Source: Lytechinus pictus (Eukaryota). From it: a stretch of DNA of 64,000 nucleotides. The notes beneath the pieces were generated by a model that worked only from the letters and a program-made list of their open reading frames with translations, ran no database searches and was not told where the DNA came from. The DNA lies in NCBI RefSeq assembly GCF_037042905.1, contig NC_087250.1, forward strand, positions 24,306,001-24,370,000, in the 5' to 3' direction. Positions 38,702 to 64,000 of the stretch are shown here, one piece after another. The first letter of the stretch is position 1. The number at the start of each line of letters is the position of its first letter. Both the position numbers and the translations under genes were made by a program.

Positions 38702-41700
38702 TATGAGGCGCCGAATGTACCAATATTATATAGAACAATTATTTGTTATATAATCATTATTTATTAAATAATAACTATTATTTATATATAATTTACATTT
38801 TATTTGTAAATAACTACTATTATATAAAATATCATTTCTAATTATTTATATATAATTCCAAGTAATACTTCATTATTTGTAAATAATAATAGTTCGACAT
38901 TCCATTATTTATAAATAATGATTATTTGTTTTTCATTATTTATAAATAATGATTATTTGTTTTTCATTATTTATAAATAATGATTATTTGTTTTTCATTA
39001 TTTACAAATAATGATTATTTGTTTTTCATTATTTATAAATAATGATTATTTGTTTTTCATTTTTTATAAATAATGATTATTTGTTTTTCATTATTTACAA
39101 ATAATGATTATTTGTTTTTCATTATTTATAAATAATGATTATTTGTTTTTCATTATTCATAAATAATGATTATTTGTTTTTCATTATTTATAAATAATGA
39201 TTATTTGTTTTTCATTATTTATAAATAATGATTATTTGTTTTTATATTATTTATAAATAATGACACTACATACTTCATTATCTATAAACAATTGCAATTC
39301 GTTTTTCCGTTATTTATAAATAAGTTTTCTATTATTTATAGATAATAATTATTTATTATCAATGCCAGTGCACATTTCTTTATTTATAAATAATTTGTTG
39401 AGTTTTCCATTATTTATAAATAATGATTATTTGTTAAATAATGAAAACGTCTACTTCATTATTTATAAATAATTTTTTCGAGTGCACCATTATTCTCATT
39501 ATTTATAAATAATCATTATTTAATGTTCGAGTTTTCCATTATTTATAAATAAAGATTATTTGTTAAATAATGAAATATCTACTTCATTATTTATAAATAA
39601 TAATTTAGTTTCAATATCCCATTATTTATAAATAATCATTATTTATAAACAATTTTTACAGTTTGCCATTATATACAAATAATCATTATTTATATACAAA
39701 TAACCATTATTTATTAAATAATGCCATTATTTATTAAATAATGGAAAACTCGCTATAACATGCAAATGTGGGACCGCCCATGATATGAATATTCATGATG
39801 CGATTTCCTTTTTCGTGATTTTTCTTCACAAATTTTTGTCCATTTCCTCTTCATAATGACATTTCTTGAAGCAATTTTCTAGGGATATGGTCTGATTGTA
39901 ATATTCTTCATTTTCTATATAACTTCGTCTTCGTAGAAATATCAAAAAGTGTAATTGTATACGATTTTTCCAACAGTTCACAATCCCCATAGGCGCGCGT
40001 GTATCGTAGGGACAACCGGTGAATCGACGGAGTGCTCTTCATCGAAATACTACGTTGGTTGGAATTTAGCCCGAATCCTCGATGGAAGTCGATCAAGTGC
40101 ATATGAGCTGAGAGAGTGAAATATCAGTGTATATGTACAGGCCCTTCTACTTTTTATAAATATTTCTTGTTGCTTTTTTTGTTAAGTTAATTTTTCCTGG
40201 TGTAGAGATAAGTTTCAGTTCTAATAATGCACTTCAAATACATTTTGGAGTGTCTGTTTGAGGCGTTTGGGGCGATTTCACCCTGGCCCCAAAATGCTCG
40301 CAACGACAATACGGGGGCATGATGACCCCTAATTTTTTAAAAACTTATTTTTCAATTGAAAATTATCACAAAATTCACCAAAAGTGTGCACGAAAGCCTT
40401 CGTATTTCACTTTTAAAACTCCCAAAATTGCCCAAATGACAAGCTTGGTCGCTTCGCTGTGTCGCTTTCAACCTGAGAACGTTTACGCGTCTGCTTCCCC
40501 CCCCCCCCCTCCTCCGAAAGAAATTCTGTATACGGCCATGCTCTAAAAGAGCCTGGCACATTGATTTATGTATACTTTCATTTTCATTATTTTTATCTCA
40601 TTATCAACATGGCCTTACGCATAATTTTTTCCAAGGGGGCCGGGGCCGGAGCATGACGCGCGTAAACTTTCTCAAAAAAATCTTGAAAGCGAGACAGCCA
40701 CGGGACCAAGCCCAAATGACAAGCTTGGTCGCTTCGCTGTCTCGCTTTCAACTTGAGAACGTTTACGCGCGTCTGCCCCCACCCCCCGAAAGAAATTCTG
40801 TGAACGGCCATGCTCAAAAGAGCATATGGCACATTGATTTATATGTACTTTTCATTTTTATTATTTTTTTCACATTATCATCATGGCCTTACACAGAATT
40901 TTTACCGGGGGGGGGGGGGGAGCAGCTAGGACGCGCGTAAAGTTTCTCAAAAAAATCTTGAAAGCGAGACAGCGACGCGACCAAGCTCAAATGACAAGCT
41001 TGGTCGCTTCGCTTTTACAAGATTTTTATGAAAAAGTTTACACGCGTCCTGCTCCCCCCACCCCCCCCCCCCCCGGAAAAAAATTATGCGTAAGGCCATG
41101 ATGATAATGAGATAAAAATAATGAAAATGAAGTATACATAAATCAATGTGCCAGGCTCTTTAGAGCATGGCCGTATACAGACTTTCTTTCGGAGGAGGGG
41201 GGGGGGGGGGAAGCAGACGCGTAAACTTTCTCAAGATGAAAGCGACACAGCGAAGCGACCAAGCTTGTCATTTGGGCACTTTTTGGAGTTTTAAAAGTGA
41301 AATACGAAGGCTTTCGTGCACACTTTTGGTGAATTTTGTGATAATTTTCAATAGAAAAATAAGTTTTTTTTAAATGAGGGGTCATCATGCCCCCGTATTG
41401 TCGTTGCGAGCATTTTGGGGCGAGGGTGAAATCGCCCCAAACGCCTCAAACAGACACTCCAAAATGTATTTGAAGTGCATTATTAGAACTGAAACTTATC
41501 TCTACACCAGGAAAAATTAACTTAACAAAAAAAGCAACAAGAAATATTTATAAAAAGTAGAAGGGCCTGTACAAGTACACTGATATTTCACTCTCTCAGC
41601 TCATATGCACTTGATCGACTTCCATCGAGGATTCGGGCTAAATTCCGCCCGCCACTTCCGGGGACCAACCAACGTAGTATTTCGATGAAGAGCACTCCGT

Positions 41701-43046
41701 CGATTCACCGGTTGTCCCTACGATACACGCGCGCCTATGGGGATTGTGAACTGTAGGAAAAATCGTATACAATTACACTTTTTGATATTTCTACGAAGAC
41801 GAAGTTATATAGAAAATGAAGAATATTACAATCAGACCATATCCCTAGAAAATTGCTTCAAGAAATGTCATTATGAAGAGGAAATGGACAAAAATTTGTG
41901 AAGAAAAATCACGAAAAAGGAAATCGCATCATGAATATTCATATCATGGGCGGTCCCACATTTGCATGTTATAGCGAGTTTTCCATTATTTAATAAATAA
42001 TGGTTATTTGTATATAAATAATGATTATTTGTATATAATGGCAAACTGTAAAAATTGTTTATAAATAATGATTATTTATAAATAATGGGATATTGAAACT
42101 AAATTATAATTTATAAATAATGAAGTAGATATTTCATTATTTAACCAATAATCTTTATTTATAAATAATGGAAAACTCGAACATTAAATAATGATTATTT
42201 ATAAATAAATGAGAATAATGGTGCACTCGAAAAAATTATTTATAAATAATGAAGTAGACGTTTTCATTATTTAACAAATAATCATTATTTATAAATAATG
42301 GAAAACTCAACAAATTATTTATAAATAAAGAAATGTGCACTGGCATTGATAATAAATAATTATTATTTTTGAATAATAGAAAACTAAATAAATAAACTAA
42401 TAAATAACGGAAAAACGAATTGCAATTATTTATAAATAATGAAGTATGTAGTGTCATTATTTATAAATAATGAAGTAGGTAGTGTCATTATTTATAAATA
42501 ATATAAAAACAAATAATCATTATTTATAAATAATGAAAAACAAATAATCATTATTTATAAATAATGAAAAACAAATAATCATTATTTATAAATAATGAAA
42601 AACAAATAATCATTATTTATAAATAATGAAAAACAAATAATCATTATTTGTAAATAATGAAAAACAAATAATCATTATTTATAAATAATGAAAAACAAAT
42701 AATCATTATTTATAAATAATGAAAAACAAATAATCATTATTTGTAAATAATGAAAAACAAATAATCATTATTTATAAATAATGAAAAACAAATAATCATT
42801 ATTTATAAATAATGAAAAACAAATAATCATTATTTATAAATAATGGAATGTCGAACTATTATTATTTACAAATAATGAAGTATTACTTGGAATTATATAT
42901 AAATAATTAGAAATTATATTTTATATAATAGTAGTTATTTACAAATAAAATGTAAATTATATATAAATAATAGTTATTATTTAATAAATAATGATTATAT
43001 AACAAATAATTGTTCTATATAATATTGGTACATTCGGCGCCTCATA
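38702..43046. mobile_element. 4.3-kb foldback element with ~2-kb inverted arms
   Basis: TATGAGGCGCCGAATGTACC...GGTACATTCGGCGCCTCATA. Arms ~38702-40685 and ~41017-43046 are near-identical reverse complements, flanked by TGTTT on both sides. Confidence 0.92.
38903..39262. repeat. 31-bp tandem repeat in the left foldback arm (~11 copies)
   Basis: Unit cattatttataaataatgattatttgttttt contains the perfect 18-bp palindrome CATTATTTATAAATAATG. Mirror array at ~42505-42845. Confidence 0.92.
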
Positions 43047-54963: not shown

Positions 54964-55511
54964 AACGCTGAGCTTCCCCCCTCGCGGAACCCTCATGCAG
55001 GACAACCCAAGGCGAGAGTCGTTCTTCTATATCTGGGAGCAGCCTCTCACAAGATTCAGAGGATTTTGAGAGAAGCCGACATTGAGGTTCGTCATAGTTC
55101 CTCAAATAAGCTTCAATCTGCCCTCACTACCCATAAGGACAAGCGCAACTCCAAGGACCTCCCTGGAGTTTACCGAATTCCTTGTGAATGCGGTAAAGTT
55201 TACATCGGAGAGACGGGTCGTTCCTTTAACACTCGGATTAAGGAACACAAGGCCCATGGTAGGAGAGACGAGAGGGACAAATCTGCAATCATCGATCATG
55301 CCCATACGCATGATCACCTGATTCTTTGGGATGAGAGTAGACTGGTCACCCGTGTCCCCTACTGGCATCAGCGGAGAGTCAGAGAAGCGTTGGAGATTGA
55401 GGAACATAACACTGTTCCTCAAGACAGCGGCCTCCAACTCAGCAATATCTGGCTTACCGTTCTAGACAAAGAGGCTAATTTGCCTAATTAGCCTACCCGG
55501 ACGTTCCACAC
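54964..55511 (+). mobile_element. Penelope-like element, 5'-truncated: linker plus GIY-YIG endonuclease
   Basis: Frame open from 54964: ...VVLLYLGAASHKIQRILREADIEV...GVYRIPCECGKVYIGETGRSFNTRIKEH...SAIIDH...REALEI; stop at 55491. Confidence 0.9.
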
Positions 55512-56305
55512 TAGTCTAGTTCTAGACGATATTAAACGAATTTGTTTTCACCGATATATACGTTCTATTCCGTGCGTACGCCCCGCCGAGTGTGCGCGCA
55601 AAACCGAGAACCTGTACTCCGAGAAAAATATCGTCTAGAACAGTTGCTCAGCGGTGACGTCAGAGGTCAAAGGTCAACGGACGAGTGCTCATGAATATGC
55701 ATGAGTTACTTGTCAATCTCGCTGCGCCGAACCGTTGTTTACGTTTTGCACTCGTTATTTGCATACATTGTGCACGTGGGATTGATGTAGTATATCTATG
55801 CAGGGACGTGAGCGTCCGTGATCTATGTGATGTAAATACATGTACATGTATCATACGACAGTTTGAGATAGTTCATTACTTTTAAGGCTACAAATAGAAA
55901 TTTCATTGTTGGGAAATTACTGTTACATGCATAATAGTTATTTCACTCTATGTGCATATCTTGGTTAAATCTGTGGGTATGATGTTACCATCATGATATA
56001 TGAAAGAAGGTGCTAATGTACCAAATTTCAAACTTCAAAACAATACAGACTATAGTTTTTCCACTTTACTCAGATGGAATAATTAATGTACATGTTTGAA
56101 TGATATATTTTATATTCTTCTTCATCTACACATGTAATTACATAAAGGCATTTTGTCTTAGTATGGGTATTGAAAATTCAGACTCATACATGTAATTAAA
56201 CTCTCATTCTTGTGAATGGATCACATCACGTACGGTACATTTTACTGTGGGCACTTGTAAATATATCATTTTCAAAGTCTTCTTCACATATTTCACTGTC
56301 AAAGA

Positions 56306-58491
56306 CATGGGTGTCGATCACGGGGGGGGGGGGGGGGATGGGGGGATATATCCCCCCCCTAATATTTCAAGTGGGGGATGGCCTGTATTATCATCCCCCC
56401 AATAATTTAGGGTAGAAAAATTATAATAATGATGATGAAAAATGAAAAAGTATGATCATGATAATTATAGTGATGATTATAGTATGCCATCAATCAGTTT
56501 GTTTCCGTCGCAATGTGTGTATGTTGTTATTAAATAAAAACATTATTTTCCAGGACTTTAAAACAGATGGGTGGAGGTTCAAGATGACAAAAATTTAAAT
56601 GTTTATGTAAGTTTTAACACATGACATAAAAGGACCCCGACGAACTAAAAACAACTTTTGTTGATAGGGTGTTCTATCCCACCAGGTAGTGGTGAATAAA
56701 TACATTTTAATAAATCAATTAATTCAAAAGGGTGGAAAAATAAACGGGAGTAAAAGGGTGGCAAGATAAACAGGGAAAACCCCATGGACGTAAATCCCAG
56801 AGGGATAAATTTTGAAAAAGTACAAATAACTTTTCTCAGATTTACCCCTCCCACATCCAAGTGCATGATGTTTGTTCCATTTAATCTACAACCCTTTTGA
56901 ATATCACTTCCTTTTTGTTATGTAAAATAAGTAAATCGCCAGGGATCGCCGCTCATAAAAAGTTATTTGCAATGAGGTCTGACATGAGGCGAAAGATTTT
57001 CGGACATTATTGAGACTACCTGAAATAGATGTTGTTCTATTTCACCCTTTTTCTTATTCATTCCCAGAAAATTCAGAGAAAAAGAAAAATACCTTTGCGT
57101 TTCTATAGAGTATAGGCTTATCACTTCATTTATTTGCCTGGTTATACACACTTTACCGATGTATGTCATGTTAGTATATTAAGTTCGGCATTCAGTAAAC
57201 CTTTGAACAAGAAAATATACCAAAAGCAAGATGTGCACAAAACGAAAGTCACCCCTACTTGTATATCCAAATACCTTGACTTGAACCATGGACCTAGTAG
57301 GTCCATGCTTGAACGATAACTTTTGGTCAATAATATTTTGCAGGAGAGCATCGATGTCCTCATTATCTATCTATGTGGAAATGAGGTGCCTATAGTCATG
57401 AAAGAGTGAGCCCACATCAAATGCAAAAATTTCACTTTAAAAAAGTCATAATATATAGTCGTTTGGTGATCAGTAGCTCATATATGGTGCCTTTGTTGTA
57501 TGCGGTTGGATGTAATTGATATTAAAACATTTTATCATGTGACCCCATCAGATACCTCTCATGAAAATATTGAGGTTCAGTGAGCTCAATATAATATGAT
57601 CATATTTTTACAAATGTTTTAATAAGTGAAATCAATTGATGGTTTCAGAAAGAATAATCATTCATTCTCTCTAAAGCGGATATGAGGATATGAACATCGG
57701 ATGGTTTTTTTTTCATGTTATTCTTGTTATTGTTATGGACTTGAATAACTAAACTTGATTATTTTTTTCTTATTTTGGCAAAAAGAAATATTTTTTGAGT
57801 TTGGAAAAGGATGGCAGTTTTACATTCTATATGAGCACACTCATGCGGTACGTAAATTTCATTGTAACACATAATGTATATTAGCTGATATTACACACTG
57901 ATCATGCTGATGGTTCAAGAAAATGTTGGAGAAATATCATGACATGACAGTTGAGTTTTGATTGTTTTAATGTTTGTTTTTGTTTCATGCACTTATAAAG
58001 TATTTAAAACATGTTAAAATCCAGGGTTAAAATCGTCTAAGGAATGACGGTAAGCCCGATGGCACACGAGAAGCCACACAGTTTGTAATTTGTGCTAATC
58101 TTATATTTTTTGTCCGAATGTGCATTTTATCATCATGCATTAAGAAGAAAAAAGATATTGCCAGTCGGGTTAGATTTAAGAGAGAAGTTGTATACATTAT
58201 GCTCAATAAACATATCACTTTGTACATGGTCCAGACATTTTTTGTCATTTTTCTTTCGTATGGGTTTATAATAAGCTTACTTGTAACACAAATTGAATTT
58301 AAAAAAAAATTATATAAGTAAAGTACACTGCAACAATTAAGCAATTTCCAAGAACACCATGCATATCAACCACTCTCAAATGTCCTAACTTGTGAATTTA
58401 GTGGGGGTAATGTTGAAAGATCCCCATCCACAAGAACATTTGTGTCAATCACCCCCCCCCCCCCAACCAAGAATACCGATCGACACCCATG
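56306..58491. mobile_element. Nested CATGGGTGTCGATC-ended element (hAT-like)
   Basis: 14-bp TIR CATGGGTGTCGATC/GATCGACACCCATG; degenerate 8-bp flanks gtcaaaga/ggcagaga. Confidence 0.6.
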
Positions 58492-59816
58492 GGCAGAGAG
58501 TATGACAAAAAGGGTTGAGAAGTACATGTACTTTGTACAGATTAGTACAGAGCTGTGAAAGGGATAAGGAAAACAGAATAAAAATCATTATTGATTTTTA
58601 AAAGTAGATTAATCTCACAAATGCGGATTTTGATGCGTGCATCAGATTTTGGAAGAAAATCTTTGCAATTGTCCTTAGAACTTTTAGTTTATTTATTTAC
58701 TTTACATGGACATATAGATAATGCGTACAATTATTTTTTGTTGTTCAGCTACATTATTATCTAGCTACAGGTAGCCAGGAAATGATATTGCCAATGATGT
58801 ACACGAAGCCTCTTCGATAAAGACCCTGACCGGTGTAAAAACAATCATATATTAAAATAAAGGTAATGATTCTTCCAATAGTTAAAAATATTAAATAAAA
58901 ATCAAAGAAACTACTCCTCCAAAGTACGCTTCGATTGAGCACCCCCATGTCGCCTGGAAATGATGACGTCACGTTGTGTCAGGAGGGTTGTGATTCTGTA
59001 GGTTTGTGTACAAAAGCATTGGGTATTTTCTTCCATTTCCATGTTATGAATCCATTTTTTTTTCGTTTTCAGATGAAAATGGCACTCAAAATTATTCACT
59101 GTTCAAATTGTTGTAAACCTACAACTATTCACTACCTTTTTTGTGATTTCTTTGTTTGGCTCTTATTGGGCCTAAATTGCTATGTCAGGAAAAGTTATTA
59201 TACATAATCTAAATGCAGATAGAATTGAAATTTGCGCCAAGTAAGCAGGAAATAAATATGGCAAAAACTAGTTCAAAACTGTAGATTTCATAATTTCAAG
59301 CTTGTGGGTAAAAATATATGTGATATCCCTCTGTGATAGAAGTGAAGAGAATGAAATGCGTTATCTGGAAAGCAAAAAAATCACCCTGTTTTTCTGTGTA
59401 CAAACCTATGGAATCACAACGCTTCTTACACAACGTGACGTCACGGTCTCGAGGCAGGTGAAAAGCACAATAAAGCCTATTTTCTAAGCGGGGTTCGAAG
59501 GCCGATAATTGGAATATTCTTAAGCAAATTACTCAGCTGGGAAGCGGTGAAAATTAATATAGCATACCTTGCTGTATTTAGTAGCTTATAAGCTTTCGAT
59601 TGGTATATAATTTATCAATTTCATTTCGGGTCCGGTCTGGATCTATAAATAAACTTGAAGGCACATTTTCTCATTACCTTTGAAGTACAGTATTTATGAA
59701 ATATATTTTTTGCAGCCATTATGAAAGAGCGTTATGTTCAGATCTACATGTACCTTGCCAGTTAATTAAATTGCTAGTAACTATTCGTTTGCAGTGTAAC
59801 TTTTACATGTAGTTTG

Positions 59817-60603
59817 CATAGGCGGATCCAGCTTTTGGCGAAAGGGGGGGGGGGGGGCACCGCCGAGCGGCGCACATATTTTTGCACCATAAAAGAAAAT
59901 GTTGAAAAAGGGGTAAAGTCTGACCCTGTCAAATGCTCTTTTCAAAATGTAGGATTTCCAGTCATGCCATTTTGCATGACCACACGCAGATAATATTTCC
60001 GGGGGGGGGGGGGGGGGGGCAAAACTCGAACATATTTTTGAAAAATAAAAATAAAAACGATAGAGTAAACGGACCGAGCTGCTCATGCGGCGATTATTTT
60101 TTTTATAAAGTGTAATAAAAGTATTTGGTACACATCTCACATTTGCACATTTTTCATAGTTTTCATGAAATGTTAAGGGAAAAAATGTGTTTTCACAACA
60201 ACTGATCGGGAATTTGCCCCCCCCCCTTCCCCCTTGCTGCGTACGACCATTCCCTGAAATCCACTTAAACATATATCATTACAACATAAAATATACATGA
60301 ATTTAGACATATAATCTTTCTTAGACATATATAGAGAGAGATTGAAAAACTTATTAAAGAAAGAAACAAGCAAAAAGTAACACAAATTATGCATGTTATG
60401 TGCGATTTCAAAATCTCGTGTCCCAACCCTTTTATTGCGATGAGGCCAATACTTGTGTATATTAATTGAGATGCAATTTTTTTTACTATATATACACAGG
60501 GGCGTCGATCCTTTTTTTCACATTGGGGGGGGGGGGGGCAAAATCATAAATCAACTTTCCAACGGCGCTCGATCACACAAAACAAACAAACTCACACACA
60601 CTC

Positions 60604-60637
<34 letters not shown>

Positions 60638-61155
60638 CTGAAATTTTTTAGTAAACTGACCTGAAAATAGGAAAAAGGTGCCTTTTAAAGACTGTTTGTA
60701 GTAACTCATGAGGAGAATACATATCTCACTACACAGATAATGCGAGTGCCGAGGGCGAGCTGAAATTTCTTTATATTCTGACCAGAAAGCTTGATATCCT
60801 CTGCATTTTGGTACCTATGATTAAGATGGGTATCTAAAAAAGACAAAACATGCGAGCGCAAAGCGCGAGCTTAAAATTTCGATCTGAAAAAAAAATGACA
60901 GTTTAATGGACGTTTTTAATAAAGAACAAGATTATATCCAACAAAAGATTATTGCAAATCGAAGCGGGACTTCTTTTGAGGTTTAGAACTGAGAACGGGA
61001 CATTCTATTCACCTATTTAATCATGAAAAGTATGGGGTTTTGCTACAGAAATGGTGCGAGCGCGAAGCGCGTGCTGAAAATTTTTGTATTCCAATCTGAA
61101 AAGCGGACAATTTGAGCACGATTTTAAACAAAGAACGAGTCGTGTAGCTCAATAT
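59817..61155. repeat. Inverted copy of ~25215-26531
   Basis: Colinear reverse-complement match starting CATAGGCGGATCCAGCTTTTGGCG and including the (TA)n tract. Confidence 0.85.
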
Positions 61156-61722
61156 CGCTTGCTGATTTCTGTGTAACATTACCATCTTATTTTATTTTTG
61201 TACATGCGGAATTATTGGAGGAGGGGGGGGGGGGGGGGGCAAAACGATATGTTTGCCCCCCCCCCCAATTATTTCTATTGGTGGGGCGAAGGACTATCTT
61301 GGCCCCCTGACGAGCTTGAAAAAAAAGCCTTTTTTGCCCCCTGACGAGCTTGAAGACCTTTTTTTTGTTTTGCTTGTCAATTTTTTTTCCAGGTACGAAG
61401 TCCTTTATTTGTGATTGAAGACTTTTTTTTTGCTTGTCAATTTTTTTGGCGGACGGTTTTGCCCCCCCCCCCTGTGGAAAATTCCAGGTACGCCACTGTT
61501 TAAAGTGCTATACTGTACGTACAAATATGACCGACTTGTGAGTTTTGTTTTGGTCATGGTTCTTTAGGATTTTTTTGTTCCAGAGAGAGTTTACTCAGTC
61601 AACTTCAATAAATGCAAAAGGGAGACAATTACTGTATTCTTGTTCTACTGCAAATTCCAATTATTGTTTGGTCAGCCATATTATGAAAGAACAGTACATT
61701 TCAGATCAAACTTGCCAATTAA

Positions 61723-62309
61723 AGGACAAGTCCACCCCAACAAACTGACTTGAATAGATAAAGAAAAATCAAACAAACATAACTCTGAAAATTTCATCAA
61801 AATTGGATGTAAAATAAGAAAGTTATAACAATTTCAAGTTTCGCTTAATTTTTCAAAACAGTTATATGCACATCTTAGTCAGCATGCAAATGAGGGGACC
61901 GATGACATCATTCACTTACTATTTCTTTTGTATTTTATTTTATGAAATATTTTGATTTTCTCGTCATTGTCTGTTAAAAAAGTTTCATTCCTCCCTGAAC
62001 ACATGTAATTCCATTATTCTAACATTTTGTGGTTCGAGCAAAGGGGCACTAATATTATCGAATTCGTAAAAATTGAAATATTGTATTATTCAAACAAAAA
62101 CAAAAGAAATAGTGAGTGAGTGACATCATCGTCTCTCTCATTTGCATATCACCGAGTTGAGTATAGAACTGTTTTGTGAAAAATAAGCCAAATTTTAAAA
62201 TGTCGTAACTCTCTTATTTTACATCCGGTTTTGATGAAATTTTCACCATTATTCAAGTTTGATTTGTCTCTATTTATTCAAATCATTTTTTCTGGGGTGG
62301 ACTTGACCT
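61723..62309. mobile_element. TTAA-site MITE (family of 3801-4403)
   Basis: ttaa|AGGACAAGTCCACCCCA...TGGGGTGGACTTGACCT|ttaa. Confidence 0.82.
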
Positions 62310-63693
62310 TTAATGACTTTGACATTATTTTCCTGCTATATATTACTGTCATGCGAACAAAAGAAGCAATTCTGTGGAACAAGTTTATGAGGAAATGTGT
62401 AAAATTGTCATTGTCATTTTACATGTGGAAATATAGAATTTCTTGCTTTTTAAGTGACTCCATTTAGGAAACTTGGGGCCATGTGACTTCAATTAAACTG
62501 GCATCATGAAGAAATTACATAATTAACCCAAATCAAGGGGAGTGTCAATTTTGAAGGATATAAAGTTGCTACCCTCTTTCCATATACATGTATACCCAGT
62601 AGGTATATTCAAGAAGACATCGTGGCCTCGGAGGAAACTTTCGAGAGCTTTGTTCTGTTGGATCTTCAAAGTCGTTGTTCCCAACTGTTTGGACATATGC
62701 AGGATGGAATCTCTGATAGAATGACGTTAATTACCCGTCGCCATCACACCATATATGAAAAAAACGAAGATATATGTGATCAAGACTTGTCTGATTTGGT
62801 AAACACGCAAGAAACTGAATTTGGAAACCGCGCGCTGTATAATTATGTATAGGCCTACAGTACACAATACAACCAGGGAGTTGGGAGTCTCCCTGATACA
62901 ACATCACGGCAGACGGTACAGTACACAAGTCTATGGCTAATGTTGTGCTGATTTGTGCGATCCGATTGATTATGTGTGTGTGTGTATTGTATATGTAATC
63001 TATATACGATAGTCTACGCTCAAAAACCTTATTGTAGGTATCAGGGGAAACATACACGATCCGATTCATTTATGATGTTTTTGTGTGTTTAATTTGATTT
63101 CTTTTATAAATTATTTACAACAAAAAGTCCTTTCTTAGGTAATTAATATTCATTTTATCGGTAGATCACACCATATTTCTCAACCCAGTAATCTTCCCTG
63201 CTGTTAACAAAGACTAGCGGCTGAACGGGAGGCGTGTCCACTTTTAACGACTTTCCCTCAAAAATCTGAGGGAGTGACGTCACCGCTGAGCAACTGTTCT
63301 AGACGATATTTTTCTCGGAGTACAGGTTCTCGGTTTTGCGCGCACACTCGGCGGGGCGTACGCACGGAATAGAACGTATATATCGGTGAAAACAAATTCG
63401 TTTAATATCGTCTAGAACTAGACTAGTTCCACACACGTGTGAGCACTGCAGTGCGTGGGCGGAAGTGGTGACTTTTGTCATTCATGCTAATCCTAGCGGG
63501 AATGATAACTGACAGCATTTCCGGTCATCGCTGGTTTTGCGCGCCCAATTTTGTGTGTTGTCACCCACGTCCGCATAAGTGGATGTCATGTGACTTTTCT
63601 AACCAATCAGAGACATGTACCCTGCGAGATACCGTGCATACGGCACTTCGACAGAGTATATAAGGCCTGCTTTTACAAACTTTGCTCATTCTC

Positions 63694-63825
63694 TGACAGG
63701 TCAGACTAGTCTATAACGCCGAGGACATTGATGCGGGAATTAAGCAACTAACTCGGAAACGACCTGGCGCAGATAATCTACCAGATTGAAGAGCGCCAAC
63801 TTAACTCCAACACCAACCAACCAAC
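63694..63825 (+). mobile_element. 132-bp 3' stub of the same I-group LINE, with 14-bp TSD
   Basis: Matches 1380-1505; flanked by CTTTGCTCATTCTC at 63680-63693 and 63826-63839. Confidence 0.85.
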
Positions 63826-63830
63826 CTTTG

Positions 63831-63882
63831 CTCATTCTCCTGAGGACGACAAGAACACAGTTGTCGAAACGTCGAGATTGGG
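63831..63882 (+). ncRNA. Minimal type I hammerhead ribozyme (copy 2)
   Basis: CTGAGGA 63840-63846, stem II gacaa/ttgtc, GAAACGTC 63866-63873, stem I as in copy 1. Confidence 0.85.
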
Positions 63883-64000
63883 TGGTCCTTTTCAGGACCA
63901 ACATCTGCCCAAGAAAGATACATGGTGTACCGTGAAACCTACTACACTATGACATCATATATGATGAGAAATTACATATTTCTTTACGAATCATGTTTTC

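Follow-up and report, generated by a model that had tools for sequence, protein, structure and literature searches.

The window, a 64,000-nt stretch of Lytechinus pictus genomic DNA (NC_087250.1, positions 24,306,001 to 24,370,000, forward strand), holds parts of two sister copies of a Penelope-type element, each interrupted by an I-group LINE; features are on the plus strand unless indicated otherwise. At the left edge lies the 3′ part of a 5′-truncated LINE (1–1505), comprising the end of ORF2 (RNase H and a C-terminal Cys/His motif), the 3′ UTR and a (CCAA)n tail. It is followed by the remainder of the pLTR of duplicate 1 (1505–1629), with an Inr-like motif, a predicted minimal hammerhead (core 1519–1552) and the Penelope 3′ end. 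The total length of this LINE, annotated in a first pass as at least 1.5 kb, is 2.49 kb; it starts 984 bp upstream of the window, and the end of the Penelope ORF, the pLTR, a TATA box and a 3-bp TSD stand 5′ of it. In duplicate 2 the 3′ end of the Penelope ORF, encoding the GIY-YIG endonuclease (54964–55491), is split from its pLTR by a 7.9-kb insertion (55512–63425, no strand assigned), which has perfect terminal inverted repeats (TIRs) of ~150 bp and a TSD of 7–9 bp and is private to this duplicate. A different 7.6-kb TIR insertion is present in duplicate 1, upstream of the window. The upstream part of the second pLTR (63427–63679, CCAAT motif at 63603–63607) contains a TATA box (63657–63664) that fits TATAWAWR, the first base of the TSD being the 24th from its first T. 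Within the left copy of the 14-bp TSD (63680–63693), position 63688 is an Inr-like A; its distance from the first T of the TATA box is 31 nt. The LINE is here a 132-bp 3′ stub (63694–63825) with a conserved stem-loop (arms 63765–63770 and 63793–63798) and a (CCAA)n tail. The right copy of the TSD (63826–63839) provides the 5′ strand of stem I of the predicted minimal type-I hammerhead (63840–63882); the tail region of the Penelope 3′ end (63883–63950) and flanking sequence common to duplicate 1 follow. The central part of the window includes a 4.3-kb palindromic region (38702–43046) built of internal repeats.

The two TSD copies are an exact direct repeat flanking the stub, and the identical LINE 3′ end meets the same pLTR base at 1505 and at the stub, as the first-pass annotation had it. 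The two loci are a tandem duplicate in the assembly, ~62–64 kb apart, with 0.12–0.69% substitutions in long blocks; this may be a true tandem duplication or two haplotypes assembled in tandem. The proposal that the duplication junction was formed by recombination through the LINE 3′ UTR is refuted, since the ORF end, pLTR, TATA box and 3-bp TSD are found upstream of the long copy and the duplication continues for more than 25 kb upstream of the window. Nor can a single precise deletion account for the stub: it has 11 extra target bases at its 5′ junction, and the tails differ by 5 nt, which is no multiple of the 4-nt repeat. Dating of the pair was uninformative (LINE 0.32% to its nearest copy, flanks 0.12–0.69%), and both duplicates carry other private insertions. 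The two LINE copies most likely arrived by separate insertions, one into each sister copy of a single Penelope locus. For this pair alone, a single insertion before the duplication, followed by two different deletions and a change of the tail, is unlikely: the loci are indeed sister copies, and the divergence of LINE and flanks does not separate the timing, but three separate changes would be required in loci that each have private insertions of their own. Seven inferred insertion events on ~100 pLTR sites, described below, moreover make a double hit on the same or a sister copy not unlikely (~0.2), and four other pLTR loci would remain.

The target element was characterised from its 2826-bp tandem unit, which has a single 858-aa frame with an RT plus a GIY-YIG domain at the C terminus (the RT was matched on the tandem-unit frame and the GIY-YIG domain on the window copy). 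The ATG of this frame lies ~160 nt below the pLTR TATA box, and the order within the pLTR is CCAAT, TATA, Inr-like motif and minimal hammerhead. By its RT and GIY-YIG frame, tandem unit and minimal hammerhead in the pLTR, it is a Penelope-like element (PMC4209133). The hammerhead call rests on the minimal architecture given there: CUGANGA and GAAA cores, an extra base before stem II (the extra-base reading of the same text was used to assign G10.1–C11.1), a palindromic minimal stem III and a stem I were all found, and self-cleavage is predicted only. The core spans 63840–63873, with predicted cleavage after 63873, 48 nt below the LINE tail, and in the predicted fold the stem I strand within the TSD pairs with 63874–63882, in keeping with the earlier claim that the insertion kept the ribozyme intact downstream. 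An Rfam scan returned no hammerhead model at E<=10. The Penelope of D. virilis has a TATA-less internal promoter, according to PMC2377424; its pLTR architecture therefore cannot be borrowed for the present element with its CCAAT/TATA/Inr layout.

The probable RNA start of the element was placed from the 5′ boundaries of its copies. Of 72 Penelope copies that diverge from the reference on their upstream side, 57 have this boundary at the Inr, 5–9 nt above the core of the ribozyme, and two have it 12–16 nt above the core; the tally was made by hand with four LINE rows set aside, and ~30 of the 57 share one upstream sequence and are non-independent. Because these boundaries cluster at the Inr, the LINE junction is not the 5′ end of Penelope RNA, which we infer to lie 7–8 nt below the junction. 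Two runs of raw RNA reads showed a cluster of loose ends where the Inr lies (L048:1508), with 89 and 65 reads. The cluster is not a start-site mapping and is compatible with Penelope copies starting there; the runs are unstranded, mostly 90–95% alike to the window copy, and consist for the most part of fragments that lie within other transcripts. With promoter activity the reads are no more than compatible, and a search of sequencing runs listed no match recorded as RNA. The ~30 short copies (e.g., G000:C8:28097790) share one inverted-head junction at the Inr and are likely a subfamily that is non-autonomous and carries two oppositely oriented hammerhead halves.

The LINE has I-group non-LTR architecture. 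In ORF2 (analysed in L148) APE is followed by RT and then by RNase H (Pfam PF03372/PF14529, PF00078 and PF00075); in the 560-aa ORF1, which gave no Pfam match at 1e-3, three Cys/His motifs were recognised by eye. Nimb is a tentative lead for the clade; no clade-named references occurred among the 120 listed homologues. Copies have (CCAA)n tails, range from ~50 bp to 5.9 kb, are 5′-truncated and carry TSDs of mostly 0–14 bp; some keep uninterrupted ORF2 frames. A tail-proximal motif was used for a census, which gave 99 genomic LINE 3′ ends; flanks were tabulated for 100 rows (the 99 and one more copy), and three duplicate rows were dropped. A second anchor search added seven copies, five of them without 3′ ends, including L181, the 5′ part of L090; no TATA was found at the two further tailed copies. 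The conserved 3′ stem-loop marks a hot spot of 5′ truncation: 16 of the 100 tabulated ends start within a 5-nt span at its base, leaving stubs of ~70 bp. The window stub had been said to begin at the base of a caggtc/gacctg plus ccgag/ctcgg stem; the arms are present and are unused in the minimum-energy fold of the stub, and only two of the 100 ends begin within 5 nt of its start, so the coincidence is unsupported. The full-length 5′ ends (L114, L128, L148 and L182) fall into two subfamilies with different short tandem repeats before a shared core; these repeats could buffer the loss of terminal bases if an outside promoter starts transcription. Promoter capture was sought as shared 5′ extras among the full-length copies, and none was common to them. 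At one locus (L123; G000:C18, ~3.308 Mb) the LINE's own tail is interrupted by an inserted SINE-like repeat, which has a tail of (CA)n. Between two tandem LINEs on C8 (~19.371 Mb, L074), the 5′ end of the inner LINE bears ~100 bp of foreign sequence, including what we take, from a translated motif, to be a sense histone H4 coding fragment; this suggests template jumping onto a cellular mRNA.

Six of the 99 LINE 3′ ends meet the same base of the Penelope pLTR, at loci on four contigs (the two window loci, C6:21.1 Mb, C8:19.4 Mb, C56 and C13:2.7 Mb). The site exists in 95 exact empty copies genome-wide, with 220 matches to its downstream part, and the chance expectation for six coincident junctions is 2e-5 to 2e-4. 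The six insertions vary in length (132 bp to full length), TSD (3, 14, 7, 3, 8 and 0 bp), tail phase and subfamily. In a tree of 50 copies of at least 380 bp, in which most forks are weakly supported, the six Penelope-site rows need five label changes, of which at least three are forced by well-supported branches. Independent insertion at a preferred site, rather than descent as one clade, is thus supported by the sequence relationships, as the first-pass annotation had suggested as one of its options. At C8 two full-length LINEs stand in tandem, and the outer one has its own 5–7-bp TSD at the same distance from the TATA box; it would represent a second hit on this locus after the hammerhead had been displaced downstream. 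The LINE is not restricted to Penelope: of the 100 ends tabulated, 92 are at no Penelope hammerhead site. Flanks at most of the other copies are unrelated and show no long junction consensus; the targeting is therefore partial, and a junction sequence shared by 6 of 99 ends is not specificity of the R1/Tx1/R2 type. The cue also differs from the one proposed: the determinant appears to lie upstream, at the TATA box, and not in the ribozyme.

The position relative to the TATA box is the finding that goes beyond repeated insertion. In the pLTR the junction lies 24–25 nt below the first T of the box and 7–8 nt above the probable start site. In a second Penelope family (L119) it lies 23 nt below a TATA-like box. 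In a Gypsy-type LTR (L125) it is 24 nt below the TATA, with a TSD of 0, as verified against empty LTRs; at L121, where the promoter of a third Penelope is fused to unrelated DNA, the distance is again 24 nt. An offset of 25 was found at a TIR-repeat end (L090/L181) and verified against an empty end. Offsets of 23–25 in fixed orientation are thus common to four repeat targets that are unrelated to one another; they hold for a minority of copies, and the bases between TATA and junction vary among the targets. Where a target was identified it was a Penelope pLTR, a Gypsy-type LTR or a TIR-repeat end; none of these identified targets is a Pol III gene.

Enrichment was also found outside this Penelope. 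After removal of its seven rows and three rearranged ones, 87 sites remained, of which eight have TATAWAD 21–27 nt upstream, whereas 0.95 would be expected from these flanks (P=5e-6, for an interval picked after inspection of the flank data). In a permutation scanning all 7-nt intervals, 0 of 2000 runs reached eight, and no TATAWAD was found in the opposite orientation at the same 87 sites. A TSD was called automatically in 31 of the 87, and some 5′ ends were made by later insertions. Among 17 junctions resolved after the interval had been fixed, three match (L090, L152 and L148; P=8e-4), these junctions being placed by hand and the TATA near L148 having been noticed beforehand; the TATA segment of L148 is single-copy, which leaves no empty site for comparison. 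Full-length copies are TATA-proximal in 6 of 12 cases versus 0 of 16 in sister I-group families (Fisher P=0.002; 20 full-length sister copies fetched, 16 resolvable, TATA sought within 70 nt of the 5′ junction). TATA matches in AT-rich DNA with no other promoter evidence were recorded at L089, L118, L135, L142 and L149; about one of the eight matches is expected by chance.

The LINE probably inserts in a position-specific manner at Pol II TATA promoters, 23–25 bases below the box and in sense orientation. About 3.9 million TATAWAD sites are expected genome-wide; the motif is so common that it cannot by itself explain the pile-up on ~100 pLTRs, and a working promoter is the likelier cue. We infer that the targeted TATA boxes are such promoters. 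Sense-oriented insertion by target-primed reverse transcription requires the first nick to be made on the template strand, and the Pol II open complex extends from −9 to +2. The initiation complex would open or bend the promoter, and the LINE endonuclease would nick the template strand there, close to the upstream limit that the TATA box sets for the open complex, 7–8 nt above the start (taken as the Inr 7–8 nt below the junction). A second break 0–14 nt downstream (−8 to +6) would give TSDs of 0–14 bp, the variable position of the second-strand break producing the variable TSD. That the upstream edge of the Pol II bubble is set relative to the TATA box is stated in PMC5055313. A more specific version, in which the LINE is tethered to the pre-initiation complex (TBP/TFIIB), makes its nick in the template strand at the bubble's upstream edge, brings its own 5′ end under the captured TATA promoter and disables that of a rival (Penelope or Gypsy), is advanced only as a tentative possibility; it would be the Pol II equivalent of targeting by Ty3 and TRE5, passive use of already opened DNA being the alternative to tethering. 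Being a TATA promoter present in many copies, in which insertions are likely tolerated, the pLTR would be hit most often; the hammerhead is likely a bystander and its link to the LINE incidental. The preference is partial: it holds for roughly one copy in six, the others (about five of six) having no TATA link and inserting without a long consensus.

A LINE protein could instead recognise the DNA itself, over a long stretch of sequence or a shape that reaches to the TATA ~23 bp upstream, making the transcription machinery unnecessary, much as R2 recognises its target at a distance. The fixed offset would follow, and so would the matches at L090 (the TIR-repeat end), L149 and L152, which lie in DNA without shown promoter function. 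We nevertheless regard direct recognition as improbable: there are millions of TATAWAD sites, yet seven inferred events fall on ~100 pLTRs, the TATA-to-junction bases differ among targets, and there is no long junction consensus. A third Penelope family, which shares the CTTTGCTCATT motif and likewise has a TATA box, gave no clean hit at 62 empty sites (0/62 versus 6/101; Fisher P=0.08). Its escape despite CTTTGCTCATT counts against recognition of the junction sequence; it also needs explaining under insertion at TATA promoters, for example by lower promoter activity.

It is similarly doubtful that the pLTR is a Penelope-specific hot spot, at which the element's own GIY-YIG endonuclease or the hammerhead hairpin makes nicks that the LINE uses. 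In its favour, two Penelope families have the junction 13–14 nt above CUGANGA; the LINE site is also where a few Penelope copies end; and the protein of Poseidon nicks its own pLTR DNA in vitro, as reported in PMC11167929. A LINE of a sister family is also found in this Penelope, the only one among 20 fetched (L216; G000:C3:15461800-15470900): it is full-length, antisense and inserted in hammerhead stem II of a TATA-less copy, and it hints at a general fragility. Against such a hot spot, the same offset occurs in the Gypsy-type LTR and the TIR repeat, neither of which has a hammerhead; the probable second hit at C8 and the hit at L121 had non-hammerhead DNA downstream; and the enrichment at 8 of 87 sites leaves out this Penelope family altogether. 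RNA chimeras, formed when an RT passes the 5′ end of a Penelope RNA and switches to the LINE 3′ end, or by ribozyme-terminated LINE read-through RNA that homes to pLTRs by homology, are highly improbable: the 3′ junction is identical among copies, and the RT appears to pick up foreign RNA (the presumed H4 fragment on the inner C8 copy), but Penelope 5′ ends cluster at the Inr, 7–8 nt below the junction, the copies at the site are polyphyletic with differing tails, which argues against a single donor, and the non-Penelope TATA insertions are left unexplained.

Insertion of the LINE at TATA promoters has its nearest parallels at Pol III genes, where targeting via the transcription machinery is already known in yeast and amoebae. 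According to PMC5911963, ORF1 of Dictyostelium TRE5-A binds TBP, Brf1 and Bdp1, NLTR-A lands 2–6 bp upstream of tRNA coding sequences and has an RNase H, and yeast Ty3 inserts at the region of transcription initiation, its position being set by TBP-containing TFIIIB. TRE5-A and NLTR-A are likewise APE-type non-LTR elements with a set promoter distance and a fixed orientation, but they are listed as L1-group and have Pol III targets, whereas the present LINE belongs to the I group, inserts in sense orientation at Pol II-type TATA/Inr sites and does so for about one copy in six. Ty3 differs in being an LTR element with an integrase and near-strict targeting of Pol III promoters. The Drosophila I factor has a broad, weak promoter preference, 100–200 bp upstream of the TSS (PMC10018349), in contrast to the near single-base, TATA-tied position found here. 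R1, Tx1, R2 and Utopia, whose specificity is sometimes weak and whose known targets include transposons (PMC4640811), are alike in inserting repeatedly at one base of a multicopy target; their targets share a junction sequence, whereas those described here have an upstream TATA offset in common and differ at the junction. A literature search, for which most subscription papers and Repbase Reports were outside coverage, gave no report of a LINE that inserts into Penelope pLTRs or that keeps a constant spacing from a Pol II TATA box above it. If the reading of TATA promoters is correct, a LINE that follows Pol II TATA geometry to 2–3 bases extends the strategy known from Pol III genes to animals and to Pol II, its insertions would mark transposon promoters that are open in the germline, and one element may be able to silence or hijack the promoter of another. 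The TATA offset offers a testable handle on site choice by APE-type LINEs, and the copies with uninterrupted ORF2 make the family assayable.

Further loci were noted in the course of the tabulation. At L158/L193 (G000:C7, ~48.665 Mb) a TATA-like box of non-canonical sequence stands 23 nt above the LINE junction and an Inr-like A occupies position 32, which matches the geometry of the Penelope site; this locus was not counted as a hit. The upstream flank of L125 (G000:C19, ~1.496 Mb, minus strand) contains a 413-aa stop-to-stop frame followed by an acidic repeat, and a motif in this frame presumably resembles those of cytidine deaminases. At L091 (G000:C3, ~81.654 Mb) the LINE is placed 21–23 nt below a (TA)n box, with a CpG-rich leader and an ATG-initiated frame downstream; the target is possibly the promoter of a host or transposon gene.
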